Notes under the pieces: model-generated
Told to the model about the DNA's origin: nothing
The model's input: the letters and a program-made list of their open reading frames with translations, nothing else
Databases searched by the model: none
Assembly: GCA_963786375.1 (NCBI GenBank)
Contig: CAWAYP010000003.1
Span: 241,215 to 305,214, forward strand
Length of the DNA: 64,000 bases
Direction: 5' to 3'
Origin: an uncultured Verrucomicrobiae bacterium
Lineage (GTDB): Bacteria; Verrucomicrobiota; Verrucomicrobiia; Limisphaerales; UBA11358
Position numbers and translations under genes: made by a program
Shown here: positions 3,266 to 54,795 of the stretch, piece by piece
How the letters are laid out: every line of letters starts with the position of its first letter
Numbering within the stretch: the stretch's first letter is position 1

Positions 3266-3758
3266 AACCCATGCGATTGCGCGACTCGGCCAGCCAGAGC
3301 GAGGCGCCGCTGGCATCCGTCAAACGCAAACTTTGGAGACTGTTTTCATCAATGGTGCCGCCGGGCAAAAACCGGATTGCCGGCAGATTGCCCATCGTGA
3401 CCGGCGTGCGGGTCGCGTTCGCGGCTTGAATTTGCAAACTGTCGTTGAGCTGGAGCGTGATGGCCTTCGGATCGCCGCCTGACGGCGGGGTTTCCTCTTC
3501 GAGGCCGTAGGCATCCTGTTTGGCGTCCACCCAAAGGAGCATCGGCATGCCTTCGGAAACGGCGCGGCTCTGGCCGGCGCGCGTGAGCGACAGCAGTTGC
3601 CGCGCCTCGGAATCGAGGGCCCGCCCGCGGAAAAAGCCGGCCAGCGCCGGCGCGACCAGGGCCGTCGTGATCACCAGCAGCGTCATCACGAGGATCAACT
3701 CGATCAACGTGAAGGCGCGCAAGCATGGTTTTCCGCCGATGTTCGGTTCAATTCGCAT
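3240..3758 (-). CDS. gspH: type II secretion minor pseudopilin GspH/FimT-like
   Basis: RAFTLIELILVM prepilin motif, ARQLLSLTRAGQSRAV and IRFLPGG; follows gspG. Confidence 0.75.
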   Translation of the reverse strand: MRIEPNIGGKPCLRAFTLIELILVMTLLVITTALVAPALAGFFRGRALDSEARQLLSLTRAGQSRAVSEGMPMLLWVDAKQDAYGLEEETPPSGGDPKAITLQLNDSLQIQAANATRTPVTMGNLPAIRFLPGGTIDENSLQSLRLTDASGASLWLAESRNRMGYEIRDTDK

Positions 3759-4206
3759 TGTTGCCCGTTGTCCAGTTGCAGATGTCATCCGCCGTTCCCG
3801 CCTGGCCATCCGGACCCATGGACATGATGTCGAAGGAAGCCGGATTATGTTTGCCCGGGCAGGTGTAAAGGTAGTCGTTGCCCCATGGATCTTTTGGAAT
3901 GGTATCGCTGTCCAGATAAGGTCCGTGCCAGTTTTGGCCGGCATTCTGCGGCTGCACGATCAAATCCTCCAAACTCTTGGGGTAGCCGCCCAGGTCCACC
4001 TCATAGGCGTTCAAAGCCGTTTTGAACGTGGAAATCTGCGTTATCGCCGCCGTGTTGCGCGCGCGCTGGGAGGTGCCGGTGAATTTCGGCAGCACGATGG
4101 CCGCGAGCGTGGCGAGGATGACCAGCACCAAAAGCAGTTCGACCAGCGTGAAGCCGCGGCGCGCGCGCGGGTGTTTCCGGGATTGAAGGGAGGATTGGAT
4201 TTTCAT
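3748..4206 (-). CDS. gspG: type II secretion major pseudopilin GspG
   Basis: GFTLVELLLVL, W.GPYL...IPKDPWGNDYLY and S.GPDGQ.GT.DDI are the classic GspG motifs. Confidence 0.95.
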   Translation of the reverse strand: MKIQSSLQSRKHPRARRGFTLVELLLVLVILATLAAIVLPKFTGTSQRARNTAAITQISTFKTALNAYEVDLGGYPKSLEDLIVQPQNAGQNWHGPYLDSDTIPKDPWGNDYLYTCPGKHNPASFDIMSMGPDGQAGTADDICNWTTGNNAN

Positions 4207-48707: not shown

Positions 48708-49187
48708 ATGGTTCACGTTGGCATCGGCTACGACGTTCACGCGCTGGTCGCGGGTCGCAAACTCATCCTTGGCGGCGTCGAGATTCCACACGCCAAAGGC
48801 CTCGACGGCCATTCGGACGCCGACGCCCTCATGCACGCCATTTGTGATGCGCTGCTCGGCGCGCTGGGCGAGCCGGACATCGGCCATTTTTTCCCGAACA
48901 CCGACCCGCGCTGGAAAAACGCGCCCAGCCGGATTTTTCTGGAGGAAGCTGCGCGCATCATCGCACTCCGGCGGGGAAAAATCGTGAACGTGGACGCGAC
49001 CCTTATCGCGCAGGAACCGAAACTTTATCCGCATACCGGGGAAATGAAACGGCGCATCGCCGACGCGCTCGGCGTCCCGGAAAAGCACATCGGCATCAAG
49101 GCCACAACCAACGAAAAAATGGGATTCATTGGCCGCGAGGAAGGCATTGCCGCCATGGCCGTGGCTGGCGTGGACTTGCCGGAGTGA
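48708..49187 (+). CDS. ispF: 2-C-methyl-D-erythritol 2,4-cyclodiphosphate synthase
   Basis: GIGYDVH, GHSDAD...HA..DALLGA, DIG..FP, KATTNEKMGF.GR.EG. Confidence 0.96.
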   Translation: MVHVGIGYDVHALVAGRKLILGGVEIPHAKGLDGHSDADALMHAICDALLGALGEPDIGHFFPNTDPRWKNAPSRIFLEEAARIIALRRGKIVNVDATLIAQEPKLYPHTGEMKRRIADALGVPEKHIGIKATTNEKMGFIGREEGIAAMAVAGVDLPE

Positions 49188-49191
49188 TTTC

Positions 49192-49307
49192 AACCACGGA
49201 TGGATACAGATGCACAGATGCACACGGATTTTGAAACCTGAACTGATGCTGCCAACCTTAAATTTCCGCCGGATCTTTTATCTGTGTTTATCCGTGCCCA
49301 TCTGTGG
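49192..49307. repeat. inverted pair of ~10-mer repeat arrays (REP-like), target of the integrative element
   Basis: AACCACGGATGGATACAGATGCACAGATGCACACGGAT (49192-49229) is complementary to ATCTGTGTTTATCCGTGCCCATCTGTGG (49280-49307). Confidence 0.75.
49292..49307 (+). repeat. attL core
   Basis: CCGTGCCCATCTGTGG, identical to 54157-54172. Confidence 0.85.
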
Positions 49308-49360
49308 CGAGTTTAACAAAACCCTTGATTTGTCAAGGGTTGCTCGCAGGGTGGACGGCC

Positions 49361-49381
49361 ACTGTCAGCGAAACTGTCAGT
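49361..49381 (+). repeat. arm-type integrase binding repeat, left
   Basis: ACTGTCAGCGAAACTGTCAGT; 20/21 identical to 54030-54050. Confidence 0.75.
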
Positions 49382-49502
49382 AAAGCGGAGAGTCACGGAA
49401 CTATTCGCCACTACTTGTCAGAACTCGCTGAAACTTTGCCACTGCTCGCGTTCACTCACGCGGTGAGAGCGGGACTGGTTACTCGATTCGAGCAAACCAG
49501 TT

Positions 49503-50504
49503 ATGAAAACTAAATACACAATGTTCCGGCGCGGGGGCGTGTTCTACGCCCAAGACAGCGCGACCGGCAAGCAGACCAGCCTTCGCACCAAAGACGAAAC
49601 CGAGGCCAAGAGCCTCCTAAACGCACGGAACGAGGCACAGCGCCAGCCGGTGTTAAACTTGCACCTTGCCCGCGCCTACCTCACGGCCAGCGACCCCGCC
49701 TTTGTGGAACGCACATGGCAGACCGTCATGGAGCAGTTGCAATCACGCGGCAAGGACAGCAGCCGCGAGCGTTACGCGACCGTCTTCAAATCATCCTGCT
49801 TTGACGCCTTGCGTCACAAGAAATTGCTGGAAACGACCGCCGATGACTTTTTCGGGGTATTCAAACAGGGCAAAGTGTCCATCGTCTATTTCCTGAAACG
49901 GCTGCATAACTTCGCCTTGAGCTTGGGCTGGATCGCCATCCCGATAGTTGCGCCCTACCTTTGGCCCAAATACGAGGCCAAGTCCCGGCGCGGCATCACC
50001 CGCGACGAGCAGGAAAGCGTCTTGGCGATTGAGAAGAAAGCCGAGTGGAAACTGTTTCTGGAATTGCTATGGGAAACCGGCGCGGCGCAAGGTGACGCCG
50101 CCGCCATGACCGCCGAGGACGTTGACTGGCAGACCCGCACCATCACCTATTTTCGTATGAAAACCGGCTCGCGGGCGCAGTTCACCATCAGCAAGGCACT
50201 GGAAAAGGTGTTACAGCAGTTGCCGACCACCGGCGCATTGTTTCCGAACCTGTCCCAATTCACAGCCAACGACCGGGCAAGCCGGTTTCGCCGCCGTTGC
50301 GAACGGGCGGGCGTCTCTGGCGTGACGCTCCACAGCTACCGCTACGCATGGGCGGAAAGGGCAAAGGTTGTCGGGATGCCGGAACGGTTTGCCCAGGCTG
50401 CGCTTGGGCATAACAGCAAGGCGATTCACCGCGCCTACGCCAAGAAAGCGGAAATCATCGTGCCGTCCCTTGAGGACTACGAGAAAAAGTTGGTAGCGGC
50501 TTGA
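49503..50504 (+). CDS. tyrosine recombinase/integrase with atypical box I
   Basis: N-terminal beta-sheet arm-binding-like region (MFRRGGVFY..SLRTKD..EA), RMKTG, LHSYR (HxxR), LGHNS, RAY. Box I reads ETGAAQGD with no Arg. Confidence 0.9.
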   Translation: MKTKYTMFRRGGVFYAQDSATGKQTSLRTKDETEAKSLLNARNEAQRQPVLNLHLARAYLTASDPAFVERTWQTVMEQLQSRGKDSSRERYATVFKSSCFDALRHKKLLETTADDFFGVFKQGKVSIVYFLKRLHNFALSLGWIAIPIVAPYLWPKYEAKSRRGITRDEQESVLAIEKKAEWKLFLELLWETGAAQGDAAAMTAEDVDWQTRTITYFRMKTGSRAQFTISKALEKVLQQLPTTGALFPNLSQFTANDRASRFRRRCERAGVSGVTLHSYRYAWAERAKVVGMPERFAQAALGHNSKAIHRAYAKKAEIIVPSLEDYEKKLVAA

Positions 50505-50507
50505 GCC

Positions 50508-50608
50508 AAGCCGAAACAAAAAGGCGGTTGAGTCCATGACTCAACCGCGTTTCTGGTTTGGGGACTTGCGCCATCCCCAAGCCCCGCGCCAGAGGCATTA
50601 GCCTCTGG
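50508..50608. other. three consecutive strong hairpins after the integrase (terminator or structured RNA/DNA)
   Basis: GCGGTTGAGTC/GACTCAACCGC (50524-50548), GGTTTGGGGA/TCCCCAAGCC (50555-50583), CCAGAGGC/GCCTCTGG (50589-50608). Confidence 0.6.
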
Positions 50609-50629
50609 ACTCCATTTTGTAGGGAAGAA

Positions 50630-51370
50630 GTGGCGGCTACGGTGTTGGTTGAAGTGTTGATCACCGAAACGGTGTCTGTGCCGTTATTTGCAATGTAGGC
50701 TTTGGTGCCATCCGGCGTGATGCCGACACCGAAGGGACCACTGCCGACAGTGACGGTGGTAGAAACGGTATTCGTTGAGGTGTTAATCACCGAGACGGTG
50801 CCAGCCCCGTTATTTGCGACGTAAGCTTTGGTGCCGTCGGGAGTGATGGCGACACCAAAAGGATCGCTGCCAACGGTGACGGTTGTGGAAACGGTGTTTG
50901 TCGAGGTGTTGATTACTGAAACCGTGCCGCTGCCACTATTTGCGACGTAAGCTTTGGTGCCGTCGGGAGTGATGGCGACACCAAGAGGATTGGTGCCAAC
51001 GGTGACCGTGGCCGCGATGGCACGGGTCGAAGTGTTGATCACCGAAACAGAGTTCGAGCCGTAATTTGCAACGTAGGCCATTGTGCCGTCAGGCGTGAGG
51101 GCCACGCCAATCGGTTCGGTGCCAACATTAACGGTTGCAATGACGGCCCTGATGTTCGTGTCAATCAGCGACACATTATTGCTGCTGAAATCTGTGATGT
51201 AGGCGATGGGACGATACAATGCCGGTATATTTATAAACAGTCCTTGCGCCGCAGGCCAAGAACCGACGGTGATGGTGTCTGTGACAGTGTGGCTTGCAAC
51301 GTCTATGACCGACACAGTGCCGTCGTCATTGTTTGCCACATAAGCTGTCGAGCCATTCGGAGTGAAGGAC
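50630..51370 (-). pseudogene. internal fragment of a YVTN beta-propeller repeat protein
   Basis: 42-aa repeats of P.GVAITPDGTKAYVAN.G..TVSVI.T.TN.V. It begins and ends mid-repeat and has no signal peptide. A 48-bp identical DNA repeat sits at 50811 and 50937. Confidence 0.8.
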
Positions 51371-52201
51371 AAGCGCACCAGCAAGGGACAATCCGATGCC
51401 TACGGCTGGATGGGGCCGCCGGTCTCAAAAACAACTGCGCTAGATACAGCCGCCGCCTTGCGTGACCGCATTACCAAGCATCCGCGTGTCATGGTCATCA
51501 ATGATGAAGCCCACCATGTATGGGACCCGGATTCAGCATGGAACGAAGCCATCCGGTTCATCCACGAAACGAGCCGTCAGCGCGGTGGTTCCGGGCTTGT
51601 TGCTCACCTCGATTTCAGCGCTACACCAAAGGATAATAAAGGACAGACGTTCAGGCATATAGTTTGCGACACCCCACTTGGTGAAGCTGTGGACGGCGGC
51701 ATTGTTAAAACCCCTGTCATTGGCAGGGCAGTCGTCGAAAAGTTTGCCAAATCAAGTCCGCGTATTGAAATTCTGCGAGGTCTTTTGCAATATCGGGCTG
51801 AATTGCGCAGCAGAGGTGTTTCCAGTGGTTTTCAATGGCTCGACGGTAGCTTTATGGAGAACAAGGAAATTTTGCTTTCGGAGGCCCCAAAAGACGTGGA
51901 TGTCGTAACGTTTTTTCACCTGCCGAATGGTTTGGATGAAGCAGCTTTCTCACCAAAAGTTGCAGATTTGTTTGACGTTACGAACACAAAAAAACTTTAT
52001 CACGTTGACGCGTATCCTTGTGTGTTAGGAAAATCAATGGAAGAAACTAATGTAACGACGATCTCATATTGGTATAGCATGTGGTCACACCGGCGGAATG
52101 GTCTCTGGAAGGGTTTTGTGCAGGTGGACATTTCCGAAGACGAGGACAATATTGCTGTAGCGCTCATTGCTCAAGTTGAACAGGAGCTTGCAAAACAATG
52201 A
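51362..52201 (+). CDS. chimeric ORF: type III restriction Res helicase fragment fused in frame to an N-truncated DUF6932-like nucleotidyltransferase
   Basis: The first ~120 aa carry NDEAHH, DFSATP and LGEAVDGGIVKTP (no Walker A). The remainder has WLDGSF..P.DVDVV..VDAY..WS..R.G.WKGFV, and the base composition shifts at ~51730. Confidence 0.7.
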   Translation: MKDKRTSKGQSDAYGWMGPPVSKTTALDTAAALRDRITKHPRVMVINDEAHHVWDPDSAWNEAIRFIHETSRQRGGSGLVAHLDFSATPKDNKGQTFRHIVCDTPLGEAVDGGIVKTPVIGRAVVEKFAKSSPRIEILRGLLQYRAELRSRGVSSGFQWLDGSFMENKEILLSEAPKDVDVVTFFHLPNGLDEAAFSPKVADLFDVTNTKKLYHVDAYPCVLGKSMEETNVTTISYWYSMWSHRRNGLWKGFVQVDISEDEDNIAVALIAQVEQELAKQ

Positions 52202-53154
52202 ACCACGACGATTACATATCTTTTGCCTCTGAAATTAAGGAATTGGAAGACCTTTTGGCCCGAATTCCAAAGGAAAATGTGATCAGCCGAATGGGCCTTG
52301 AGTCGCGCCTGAAGGCCGCTCAAGAAGCCATAGCAGGATACAATCCCCTACAGTTGCCGAAAAAGGCTCGATTAACTTTCAGGGGAAGACCCGTTGTTGG
52401 TTCTCATGGTGCATCTGCTGAATTTGCAGCGAGGGCTTCCGGGTTTTTTACTGACGCTTTTTCGGCTGTTGTCGCAGGAATTTCAGAAAACCTTCGTTAC
52501 ATGGGGCCGATTCCTGATAAAGAAAAAAATCAATTGCTGATAACAGGCACCGCTATTGGTTCTTTTGGATTCGAGTTCGAGCTTCCCCGACTTCAACCTG
52601 AGAACGCAAACGGCCAAGACGATTTGTTTCCCGAAGCAAATAAACCGGAAAACCGGCCAGAGGTTGCTATGGAGAAATTGGAAAAGCTTTTTCAAGTCGC
52701 AGCGGAAGGAACCGACGATGACATTGCCGAGTTGCTTGACGAGATTCATCCTCGCGCAGTCATAAAGGCTTCCGAGTTCTTGGATTATCTCTCAGAGCAG
52801 GACGCTTGGTGTGGTGTCGAGTTTAAGGAAACGGTTTTTCGTTTTGGCGGGGTCGAGCAAGTCCGCGAATCTGCCGCTCGCCTCAAATCAAATAACATCA
52901 AGGAGTCAGAAGAAACTTATCGTGGAGAATTCCAAGGCGTATTGCCAAAAGGCAGAACCTTTGAGTTTAAGGTTCTTGACCAAGATCAAATTTTGCGTGG
53001 CAAAGTAGGAGCAGAAATCGAAGATGCCGACGTTTTGAATGGGATTTTGCATAAGCACGTAACGGTGAAATTTCATGTGATGCAGGTGGGCCAAGGACGC
53101 CCTAGGTTTACTTTGCAAGTCATGGCCGACGTAGCCGAGGAACCCGCCTCGTAA
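52198..53154 (+). CDS. hypothetical protein coupled to the DUF6932-like gene
   Basis: 318-aa acidic ORF with ATGA overlap and AT-rich codons. It has an N-terminal coiled coil, a GSFGFEF motif and a beta-rich C-terminus (G.F.GVLP..RTFEF). Confidence 0.8.
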   Translation: MNHDDYISFASEIKELEDLLARIPKENVISRMGLESRLKAAQEAIAGYNPLQLPKKARLTFRGRPVVGSHGASAEFAARASGFFTDAFSAVVAGISENLRYMGPIPDKEKNQLLITGTAIGSFGFEFELPRLQPENANGQDDLFPEANKPENRPEVAMEKLEKLFQVAAEGTDDDIAELLDEIHPRAVIKASEFLDYLSEQDAWCGVEFKETVFRFGGVEQVRESAARLKSNNIKESEETYRGEFQGVLPKGRTFEFKVLDQDQILRGKVGAEIEDADVLNGILHKHVTVKFHVMQVGQGRPRFTLQVMADVAEEPAS

Positions 53155-53490
53155 GGGGCGGCGTCAGACTGCGATTTTGGCTACGGCTACGTGCGCGAGC
53201 GAGACTGTGCCTTCGCTGGCAATTCGCAGACTGCCGCCGGGGAGGAAGCCTGACTCCGCCAATCCTGCCGTTTCCACTCCGCTCCATTGCCGCGCCGCCA
53301 ACGATCCGCTCCGCTGGCTCGCGCTTTCATTCCGCTGCATTCCACCTCTGGAATTATCGGAGACAGGCCGGAGGATGCGCCACTGTCATGCCTGATGCGT
53401 TCGCAATCAGTCCCGCCAGTCTCGCCCGCTGACGCGGATATGGTTTGAAGAAATCCTTGCCGTTTTCAGGTCTTTTTCCGCTGCGCTCCT

Positions 53491-53634
53491 TTCTGCTTGT
53501 TTCGCTCTGTCGCCCTCACCAGTCCGTTCCACAGGGGGCCGGGCGCGGTGCCCTCTAAAGACTACTCCCGCTGGCCGCCCTGCTTCGCGGCCTTTTACGG
53601 TTGAAGGGCGACAGACCGAAACCGAACAGCAGAA
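53491..53634. promoter_or_regulatory. long imperfect hairpin, Frpo/ssi-like single-strand promoter candidate
   Basis: TTCTGCT/AGCAGAA, GTTTCG/CGAAAC and TCTGTCGCCCT/AGGGCGACAGA are nested stems ending 15 nt before ATG 53650. Confidence 0.5.
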
Positions 53635-53649
53635 CACAAAAAAAAGACC

Positions 53650-54030
53650 ATGAAAACTAAATCACAAAATCAAAAATCGGGACTCAAGAGCCGACCCGAA
53701 CAGCTTAACACAAAACAGTTGCCGAAGATTGACTTGGCATTGCGCCGCGCGAATCGCGCTTTGAAAACGGAAAACTTGCTGGCGTTGCTCCGCAGCAAGA
53801 CGCCGAACTTCTTTGAGATTGCCGAGGTTGTCGGCAAGTGGGTTTGGATTCAGTTTGACGGGAAGCAGCCCTTCACCGTCACCAGTGTTTTGTCAGAGCT
53901 TGGCTTCCATTGGAACAACACCCGCCAAGCGTGGCAGCATCCTTGCGGCACGATTGCCGACAAGCGGGCGGACTACGACCCGCGCAAGCGTTACGGCAGT
54001 TACTTCGCCGCCGACCGGATTGCAGCCTGA
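53650..54030 (+). CDS. small hypothetical mobile-element protein
   Basis: 126 aa with EVVGKWVWIQF...LSELGFHWNNTRQAWQHPCG...YDPRKRYGS; its stop abuts the right arm repeat. Confidence 0.75.
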   Translation: MKTKSQNQKSGLKSRPEQLNTKQLPKIDLALRRANRALKTENLLALLRSKTPNFFEIAEVVGKWVWIQFDGKQPFTVTSVLSELGFHWNNTRQAWQHPCGTIADKRADYDPRKRYGSYFAADRIAA

Positions 54031-54050
54031 CTGTCAGTGAAACTGTCAGT
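54030..54050 (+). repeat. arm-type integrase binding repeat, right
   Basis: ACTGTCAGTGAAACTGTCAGT. Confidence 0.75.
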
Positions 54051-54156
54051 GAAAGGGATGAAAAGTAGTGAAAAATTCTGGCGAGTAGTGACGAATTTAA
54101 CTTTAATTTACAATGCTTTTTGCTATTTTATGAGTGTTCTGAATCGGGTTTACAGA

Positions 54157-54172
54157 CCGTGCCCATCTGTGG
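54157..54172 (+). repeat. attR core
   Basis: CCGTGCCCATCTGTGG followed by TT, which restores pairing with AACCAC at 49192. Confidence 0.85.
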
Positions 54173-54186
54173 TTAATTAAATTTTC

Positions 54187-54456
54187 ATGCCAAAAGCGGA
54201 AATCAGCTGGAAGCGGGTCACCGACGACGGCGTCAAGCTGCAGGTTTATGCGCGACGTGCCGGTCGGGAGTGGATTTTCTTCCAGCGCGAAAAACGCTAC
54301 GACCAGTGGCAGCCGGTGGCCGAGCCGCCGTTGGAAGACTGGCTGGAATTATTGGACGCCGTGCGCCGCTTCATCCCGCGCCGCCGTTACCAGCCGGATG
54401 ATGAGGAACATCTGCGCCGGCGGATCCGCGAACGGTTTCCCGAAACGGGAATTTGA
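54187..54456 (+). CDS. conserved-looking hypothetical protein
   Basis: 89 aa with host-like codon usage and W..LLD...RR motifs; it would follow ispF in the empty site. Confidence 0.7.
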   Translation: MPKAEISWKRVTDDGVKLQVYARRAGREWIFFQREKRYDQWQPVAEPPLEDWLELLDAVRRFIPRRRYQPDDEEHLRRRIRERFPETGI

Positions 54457-54795
54457 TCGTGCCCATCGTGTCCTGGAGTCCGTGTCCCGAAATCAGTGCG
54501 TGCAATCCAAAATCAGCCGGACCAGGGACACCATCCCAATGATTAAACCAATGATAATCACTATGCCCAACGCATCGGATCCGGCTTTCTGCCGGTGATT
54601 GGTGGGAATAATCGTGTTTAACAAATGATAAACAACACTTCGATTCGTCTTTGTTACGTCAAACTTCACGCCGCTCTTCAAGCACGAATCAGGCCAGCTC
54701 CTGAAAGGCAAACGGGAACGTTACCGAAGCCTTGCGGCGGTTGAGAGTTGATTTTGCCGCTGACAATCCACCGGGGCGTCTTTACATTGCGCGGG

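Follow-up and report, generated by a model that had tools for sequence, protein, structure and literature searches.

The 64,000-nucleotide stretch of DNA analysed here (the window; C3:241215-305214 of a 3.04-Mb genome in 17 contigs, G000) carries, at 49292-54172, an element that very probably belongs, in reduced and partly decayed form, to a family of integrative and mobilizable elements (IMEs) whose tyrosine integrase targets a dispersed host repeat, in uncultured Verrucomicrobia subdivision 3 represented by Limisphaerales-type metagenome-assembled genomes (MAGs). Its left neighbour is ispF (48708-49187, + strand; Pfam YgbB, E 3.4e-65), and its right neighbour a host core gene for an 89-aa protein (54187-54456, + strand) found in 57 of 61 genomes of the genus, including the unpublished G073. 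These two genes are neighbours in 10 of the 11 loci of relatives that were viewed, with intervening spacers of 88-109 nt; the eleventh locus (G046) has about 2.1 kb between them, holding by eye a TPR-type gene. Since relatives keep ispF and the 89-aa gene adjacent, the segment 49292-54172 is an insertion, and its removal places the 89-aa gene after ispF, as an earlier reading of the sequence (the original prediction) had claimed. No tRNA gene was detected in the window by ARAGORN, in line with the same prediction.

The predicted exact 16-bp direct repeat around 4.9 kb was confirmed: CCGTGCCCATCTGTGG is present at 49292-49307 (attL core, + strand) and at 54157-54172 (attR core, + strand), with no further exact copy in the genome. 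When up to three mismatches are allowed, five matches occur in the window against 0.91 expected, a number reached in none of 100 shuffles. The chance of one exact 16-mer pair in 64 kb is not low (about 0.5 pairs expected by our estimate), and the case for an element is made by its anatomy and by junctions replicated in other elements, not by the 16-mer pair alone. At attL the sequence runs on as GTGGCG and at attR as GTGGTT, so that, as originally noted, the terminal TT is present only beyond attR. Immediately 3′ of the ispF stop codon, at 49192, begins an inverted partner AACCACGGATGGATACAGAT, the left arm of a hairpin formed by an inverted host repeat copy (49192-49229, - strand; inverted repeat I9, weak nhmmer matches at C3:290404-290443). 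In the predicted fold it pairs with 49276-49307 (+ strand; nhmmer C3:290494-290524, E 5e-6), where the host repeat units ATCTTTT/ATCTGTGTTT/ATCCGTGCCC/ATCTGTGG constitute both the right hairpin arm and the integration target. When the 4,865 nt between the copies are taken out together with one copy, an attB spacer of 134 nt is rebuilt whose predicted fold is a single long hairpin (-38.3 kcal/mol; z -3.8 relative to 200 shuffles), and the proposed pairing of the restored site with the partner at 49192 thereby held. The present attL still folds at -36.4 kcal/mol, which implies that the hairpin on the ispF side outlasts insertion almost intact.

Both junctions are found in sequencing data. The stretch occurs in runs from metagenomes of soil, peat, bog and wetland, four of which were examined as Logan contigs (X1, X3, X5 and X7). 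The attL junction is bridged by X1 record 1 (48900-49683) and X3 record 9 (49137-49683), and attR by one contig, X1 record 8 (54132-54500), in each case with 0 differences; X1 may be the sample behind the window's own assembly. A weak joint in X7 between 49165 and 54269 (side 26, depth 2.4) was considered as excision and rejected, as it looks like a relative with adjacent ispF and 89-aa genes; these contigs speak neither for nor against excision. Separately, an X1 contig with a loose end behind 54176 carries the right end of the element and the core followed by a different flank, ATTCTGCCCGTGAAAGCTGTCATT..., which resembles the neighbour of the repeat copy at G000:C14:72549 and suggests that a related strain in that sample has the element at a further site.

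Within its direct repeats the element comprises a backbone shared with other elements (49285-50613 and 53208-54173) and variable cargo in between. The left module, which is common to 20 other element loci over 49285-50613, opens with a P′ arm (49308-49502, + strand; repeat family D10) kept in all close elements and composed of a small hairpin AACCCTTGA/TCAAGGGTT (49320-49341), of arm-type repeats ACTGTCAGCGAAACTGTCAG in tandem (49361-49389) and of the integrase leader. An intact gene for a tyrosine integrase of 333 aa follows (49503-50504, + strand), and the module ends at a terminator-like inverted repeat after this gene (50511-50561, no strand assigned; I1, 24-nt arms, 83% complementary). 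The right module consists of about 440 nt of conserved non-coding DNA (53208-53649, no strand assigned; 94% identical to two other copies, C5 and L077) and of orf126, a backbone gene for 126 aa at the right end (53650-54030, + strand) with a homolog at the far end of eight elements. Next comes a P arm (54030-54156, + strand; D10), which has arm-type repeats ACTGTCAGTGAAACTGTCAG in tandem (54030-54058) and finishes with the right end ...GGGTTTACAGA. The arrangement ACTGTCAG-N4-ACTGTCAG is found near both ends of the element (49361-49389 and 54030-54058), and these tandem repeats are probably the arm sites of the integrase.

The integrase matches Pfam Phage_integrase (PF00589) with 55.9 bits over residues 166-316 (cut-off 27.1) and phrog_1 over residues 9-316 (E 3e-25). 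Alignment to IntI4 and the P2 integrase puts A195, followed by Q196, at the position of the first catalytic arginine (Arg-I); H277, R280, H303 and Y312 are present, with K220 as a candidate lysine. The sequence [AGS][AS]Q occurs at Arg-I in all 64 aligned family members, including those that target tRNA genes, together with conserved H277, R280, H303 and Y312. Many independent insertions in the family argue that the enzyme works despite the loss of Arg-I. The substitution is located at residues 192-197, or window positions 50075-50092.

A second element of 15.0 kb is present in the same genome at C5:139.8-154.9 kb (L090), with an integrase 90% and an orf126 product 97% identical to those of the window copy. 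This element occupies another repeat copy, and the sequence common to its attL and attR is limited to the 11-nt CCGTGTCCATC, to the right of which attL has element-type and attR host-type sequence. As nothing more is shared, the 11-nt core (CCGTGYCCATC) probably holds the region of strand exchange. The P arms of the two elements are the same at 126/126 nt. A third repeat copy bears a right-end remnant (G000:C1:289289-289452; about 3290-3460 of locus L091, - strand), 83% identical over 100 nt to the P arm, with triple ACTGTCAG arm repeats, GGGTTTGCAGA and the core CCGTGCCCCTCTGTGG; no integrase was found near it. The remnant stands just upstream of a gene starting MKPRLRFAPSPTGYLHIGG, glutamyl-tRNA-synthetase-like by our reading.

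The integrase clade, with members about 71-100% identical, is spread across this genus of Verrucomicrobia subdivision 3. Matches to the integrase at E<=1e-120 were obtained in 43 of 163 genus genomes, a count that includes relatives at tRNA-Asn with 56-65% identity, and several genomes have 2-3 copies. A table of junctions anchored on the conserved arm holds 36 entries with integrases at least 74% identical, and 34 of them display at least two ATCYGTG-like units, in a single register, ending at the element boundary; at a further junction, L059, the contig ends after one repeat unit. A scan of named genomes (33 loci, in records mostly labelled Verrucomicrobia subdivision 3, Verrucomicrobiia or Limisphaerales) returned 15 duplicates of known junctions, one more (L109) that is the L077 junction, and 13 new rows, 12 of them distinct, every one in the repeat; the remainder were of tRNA-Asn type or had no anchor. 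In total, 46 of 48 distinct clade junctions lie in the repeat in the same register as the units at 49276-49307, with all flanks different. Seven elements with both ends in the fetched DNA are about 4.9-15 kb long and have core repeats of 16 nt in the window copy and 11-12 nt in the other six, and their rebuilt attB sites are two- or three-unit copies of the repeat. The attL and attR cores of L062 differ at one position; one subclade (98*) has a shifted core, TGTGTTTCATCT, and another set has CCATC|CTAnnnCAAGT junctions. A smaller element of about 3.6 kb (L060; G059:C27:55800-59850) has its integrase at 640-1635 and a homolog of the right arm at 3904-4048, with no match to orf126. Five records labelled Pseudomonadales, Akkermansia muciniphila, Bifidobacteriaceae or Chloroflexi (L095, L106, L108, L114 and L116) contain near-identical elements in the same Verrucomicrobia-type repeat; these odd labels look like binning or naming errors.

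It could be argued that the insertion in the window is a one-off event at a secondary site, made by an integrase that properly targets a tRNA gene, an outcome the original prediction had named as speaking against it. Relatives do use tRNA genes: integrases 56-61% identical are found at tRNA-Asn(GTT) and those 44-49% identical at tRNA-Cys(GCA) or a 3′ fragment of it. The genome of the window itself has six paralogs likewise located at tRNA 3′ ends or tRNA-end fragments, those at the 3′ end of tRNA-Phe (C12) and of another tRNA gene (C1) having been identified by reading rather than by ARAGORN. In the close clade, on the other hand, the repeat is the rule: with 46 of 48 junctions in the repeat, none of the 48 at a tRNA gene (a tRNA search in three of the close-clade loci was also negative), and the two complete copies in this genome at two different repeat loci, the secondary-site explanation is scarcely credible, and only its first half, the occurrence of homologs at tRNA genes, was found. 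In a quick maximum-likelihood tree of 64 rows, 33 repeat-site rows form one branch (100*) with L033, a close element discussed below, and with a sister pair of 64-66% identity. This branch joins the tRNA-Asn rows at 99*, and the tRNA-Cys group falls on the opposite side. Tandem arm repeats co-vary with the integrase clade (ACTGTCAG, GTGCCAGC, ACGGACACC and CTCCAGCAAAAG), as would fit arm-type integrase sites. Judged from these sequence comparisons, the view appears to hold that repeat targeting is a derived switch from integrases using tRNA-Asn and tRNA-Cys, and not a one-off; the repeat clade would thus have arisen from enzymes that recognise the 3′ ends of these tRNA genes.

The host repeat itself consists of tandem ATCYGTG units of about 10 nt, in copies of 2-4 units that usually occur as inverted pairs forming intergenic hairpins. 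With two mismatches allowed, CCGTGCCCATCTGTGG has 24 matches in the genome, mostly within AATCYGTGTTYATCYGTGYYCATCYGTGGYT. A profile built from 26 copies and searched with nhmmer yielded 72 genome matches at E<=10 and 43 at E<0.01, the latter spanning 1,316 nt (0.043% of the genome); sites that carry the core number roughly 18 per genome. An opposite-strand partner lies within 200 nt of 24 of these 43 copies, and 15 of 15 pairs are arranged alike, with the GTGG ends outermost. ATCTGTG with period 10 is the commonest non-trivial tandem 7-mer of the genome, and the two-unit pattern ATCYGTG-N3-4-ATCYGTG occurs in 158 of the 163 genus genomes, at 0 to about 220 per genome (G073, with 0, included), relative to a reversed-pattern control near 0. 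The idea that presence of the element tracks presence of the repeat was dropped, the repeat being near-universal. The designation of the target as a repetitive extragenic palindromic (REP)-like sequence in the original prediction was upheld in that the repeat is short, intergenic and hairpin-forming in inverted pairs. It does not extend further: single copies are tandem units and not palindromes, the hairpin being made by inverted pairs; the copy number is 43 versus the more than 100 typical of strict REPs or bacterial interspersed mosaic elements; and the two PF01797 matches in the genome revealed no link of the ATCYGTG repeat to a REP-associated tyrosine transposase (RAYT). The repeat is REP-like in a loose sense only. 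The RAYT-like Y1 transposase gene at C1:222315-222830 (L125) is flanked by an inverted GTAGCGGCGGTCTGTGACCGCCGC-type palindrome and not by ATCYGTG units, and this palindrome represents a second, classical REP-like family in the same genome. The spacers between ispF and the 89-aa gene in relatives (L022-L032), like window positions 49188-49307, contain an inverted pair of tandem short units throughout, the unit varying by species (GTGACAn, TGAATTT/AAATTCA, GTGAAAC, GGACTn and others), so that one hairpin position is filled by different repeat 'flavours'.

The attP site of the element has about 1.5 repeat units (CCGTGYCCATCTGTG), and integration followed by imprecise loss could seed further copies; the repeats would then be footprints or miniature derivatives of the element rather than an independent host repeat. 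The distributions are at odds with such an origin, the two-unit pattern being present in 158 of 163 genomes and the integrase in 43, as is the structure of the copies, with their 2-4 units and regular inverted pairs in one arrangement. The orthologous spacers of relatives, moreover, are free of any element and yet contain comparable hairpins built from other units. We regard a footprint origin as very unlikely and take the repeat to be an independent host sequence into which the elements integrate.

We rate the element as an integrase/att system of classical type in which a multicopy repeat serves as attB. A lambda-type tyrosine integrase would recombine the attP core (ACAGA-CCGTGYCCATC-TGTG) with the outermost unit of the host repeat. 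As attP mimics a repeat unit, the hairpin of the upstream gene would be rebuilt at attL and no gene cut, and a target of many copies would offer many enterable loci and allow several copies to coexist in one genome. The original prediction had spoken of a tyrosine-recombinase transposon family exploiting a multicopy repeat as a harmless target. The target is borne out by 46 of 48 junctions, whereas transposition is not the appropriate description, integration being site-specific through a shared attP/attB core and not transposition with target duplication. No transposase family was matched by any open reading frame (ORF) of the window copy in Pfam, PHROGs or NCBIfam, and the element is not an insertion sequence (IS) of IS3 or IS110 type.

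A strong hairpin as target also invites comparison with integron integrases and their folded attC sites, and the integrase might recognise a hairpin or cruciform of the repeat rather than its duplex sequence. Weak matches to NCBIfam XerA and integron-integrase models (E 8.6e-10 and 3.9e-4, both far under cut-off) point in this direction, and full elements would enter a cell single-stranded through the action of their relaxase. Register and 11-nt core are conserved, though, whether or not the repeat copy is paired, L033 has integrated at the core CCGTGACCATC where there is no repeat, and the arm-type repeats together with the ACAGA...TCTGT symmetry of the core fit a classical lambda-type duplex reaction. 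We consequently regard recognition of folded DNA as improbable and prefer recombination of duplex cores, with the repeat as attB.

The classification of the family as integrative and mobilizable derives from its larger members, of about 9-15 kb, in which genes for relaxase and coupling protein are present. Those of the C5 copy are of MobA/MobL (E 6.5e-65) and TraG/TraD type, respectively, and homologs of both are found in 6 of 21 element loci (C5 and five others), many loci ending at contig ends. Full-size members could thus supply the MobA/MobL relaxase and type IV coupling protein for transfer. The C5 copy also carries a second, P4-type integrase (395 aa), a sigma-70-like gene and an Eco57I-type methylase apparently split over neighbouring ORFs. 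Domain searches and homolog comparison of the 21 loci detected no relaxase or coupling protein in the window copy. The original statement that replication, conjugation and capsid genes are lacking is accordingly correct for the window copy, in which searches of Pfam, PHROGs and NCBIfam found an integrase but none of these, and incorrect for the family. The window copy is a reduced, partly decayed member in which the integrase module and the right module are retained.

The space between these modules is filled by cargo debris and a damaged candidate defence pair of PDC-M63 type. A fragment of a YVTN beta-propeller repeat gene (50455-51384, - strand; TIGR02276 repeats, E 4.4e-76; 126-nt tandem periodicity) is absent from other elements, and no signal peptide or proper ends were read in it. 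It is followed by a chimeric ORF (51362-52201, + strand) that joins a restriction/helicase fragment (aa 34-120; NF046055) to a 5′-truncated DUF6932/PDC-M63A-like gene (PF22014, E 8.5e-25; PDC-M63A, E 6.5e-14), which lacks about 34 N-terminal residues relative to a full homolog of 190 aa in L065. A partner gene for 318 aa (52198-53154, + strand) matches phrog_18731 (E 1.6e-59) and, weakly, PDC-M63B (E 0.0029). In PADLOC terms, the A component of the PDC-M63 candidate defence pair corresponds to the truncated, helicase-fused gene and the B match is weak. The same gene pair (51362-53154) adjoins the integrase in L065, with 77% nucleotide identity.

These remains raise the prospect that the window copy is an immobile relic, which integrated as proposed and is now unable to excise or transfer. 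The beta-propeller and helicase fragments and the DUF6932 gene without its first 34 or so codons suggest decay, the copy has no relaxase, coupling protein or recognisable excisionase, and no excision joint was seen in the Logan contigs, in which rare forms would not be visible. The integrase ORF of 333 aa, by contrast, is intact with H277, R280, H303 and Y312, the direct repeat is perfect across 16 nt, and both arms are intact, the right one being the same at 126/126 nt as that of the relaxase-bearing C5 copy, so that help in trans is conceivable. A relic is a possibility to be kept in mind but the less probable condition; the window copy, as a reduced member of the IME family, may still be able to excise or be mobilised in trans.

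Several observations weigh against this overall interpretation. The canonical first catalytic arginine is lacking (A195) throughout the family, including in evidently mobile relatives. L033 (G144), a close element, lies outside the repeat, in sequence that still has CCGTGACCATC and in a genome with only 2 matches to the pattern, and the sister pair L078 (G168) and L081 (G071), at 64-66% identity, uses a third type of site that is neither a tRNA gene nor ATCYGTG. The tree is a quick version with midpoint rooting only, and every genome is a MAG, often with short contigs that break off at the element. No excised circle, empty site or joint from 49307 to 54173 was detected in the Logan contigs of X1, X3, X5 and X7, which cannot show rare forms. 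No excisionase was recognised among the element's proteins, orf126 has no assignable fold, and the cargo is decayed, so that the window copy is possibly a relic. As regards the L078/L081 site, the sequence upstream of the integrase reads TTACCnTTTCTTT..., with a duplicate nearby.

Beyond the assignment of the element to a repeat-targeting IME family, a fuller scenario would combine a switch from tRNA genes to a repeat that serves as a safe harbour of many copies, shifts of the core in sub-lineages (CCGTGYCCATC, TGTGTTTCATCT and CCATC|CTAnnnCAAGT), rebuilding of the host hairpin, coexistence of copies, possible mobilisation in trans through the right module, and catalysis without Arg-I. That all of these apply jointly seems plausible, and we incline slightly towards it.

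In textbooks, the tyrosine integrases that serve islands and prophages are enzymes of a single site, in tRNA or tmRNA genes or conserved genes, and known IMEs are mostly located at tRNA genes or other single-copy sites. The islands at tRNA-Asn(GTT) and tRNA-Cys(GCA) in this genus resemble the element in integrase family (44-61% identity), in the order att site, tandem arm repeats and inward-facing integrase, and in A/S-Q at Arg-I. They differ in their attB, which is the 3′ end of a single-copy tRNA gene rather than a unit of a repeat present in dozens of copies, and in their arm repeats. The full-size copies are comparable to IMEs with a tyrosine integrase and MobA/MobL, in that integrase, relaxase, coupling protein and variable cargo lie between att repeats; the window copy is without transfer genes. 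Filamentous prophages of Neisseria reportedly reside in dRS3 repeats and use an IS110-like transposase; these, and integron attC sites, are other cases of mobile DNA or a tyrosine recombinase at multicopy palindromic repeats. Integron integrases, unlike that of the element, have folded single strands as substrates, and what they move are cassettes rather than islands.

REP targeting is documented for five IS families, with no tyrosine recombinase among them (PMC1525189). The elements concerned are IS1397 and ISKpn1 (IS3 family), IS621, ISPpu9 and ISPa11 (IS110 family) and members of IS4, IS256 and IS5 (PMC1525189, PMC12288879), ISPpu9 being described as located in REPs (PMC12288879). Like the element, they land harmlessly in an intergenic palindromic repeat that is present in many copies (PMC1525189, PMC12288879). 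They rely, however, on a DDE or DEDD transposase (with a bridge RNA in IS110) and have no cargo, whereas the element has a tyrosine integrase, arm sites, a core shared by attP and attB, and kilobases of cargo. The integrase IntDOT of CTnDOT is described as missing a critical conserved catalytic residue and as tolerant of mismatches in the crossover region (PMC2936281). Here, Arg-I is absent throughout the family, and the att cores of L062 mismatch at one position. IntDOT differs in recognising a short consensus target and not a repeat family. A search of the open-access literature, with supplements and subscription journals outside its reach, turned up no tyrosine-integrase island for which a REP-type attB had been reported.

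The clade thus offers a well-sampled natural case of retargeting from tRNA-Asn and tRNA-Cys to a dispersed repeat, with close outgroups still at tRNA genes, and so a comparative system for the evolution of core and arm specificity. Repeat targeting would also explain how several related islands are accommodated in one genome without competition for a site or damage to genes. For a phylum with few genetic tools, the clade suggests a source of compact integrases that find dozens of landing pads already in place. A second oddity, which can be tested, is that the whole family has lost the first catalytic arginine.

A search of 49100-54300 against Rfam at E<=1 gave no match. The non-coding part of the right module contains an inverted repeat (I4; 53499-53516/53605-53622) with 18-nt arms, 94% complementary, and one compensatory change, L065 having CTTTCG/CGAAAG where the window has CTGTCG/CGACAG. 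In the loop of I4 (53499-53622), GGTGCCCTC bears a faint likeness to MOBQ-type nick sites, which is a lead only. The region may be an origin of transfer (oriT), a leader or a promoter, oriT being a guess. The product of orf126 belongs to no family of Pfam, PHROGs or NCBIfam, falls only in hypothetical clusters of the Atlas, and in PADLOC weakly matches the end of ZorC (E 1e-4); its AlphaFold2 model has a mean pLDDT of 60.5 and found no fold match in the PDB at E<=0.001. A function as excisionase would be a guess. As a last feature of the host genome, ACACACA and CACACAC occur about 650-700 times at even spacings, indicating long (AC)n runs.

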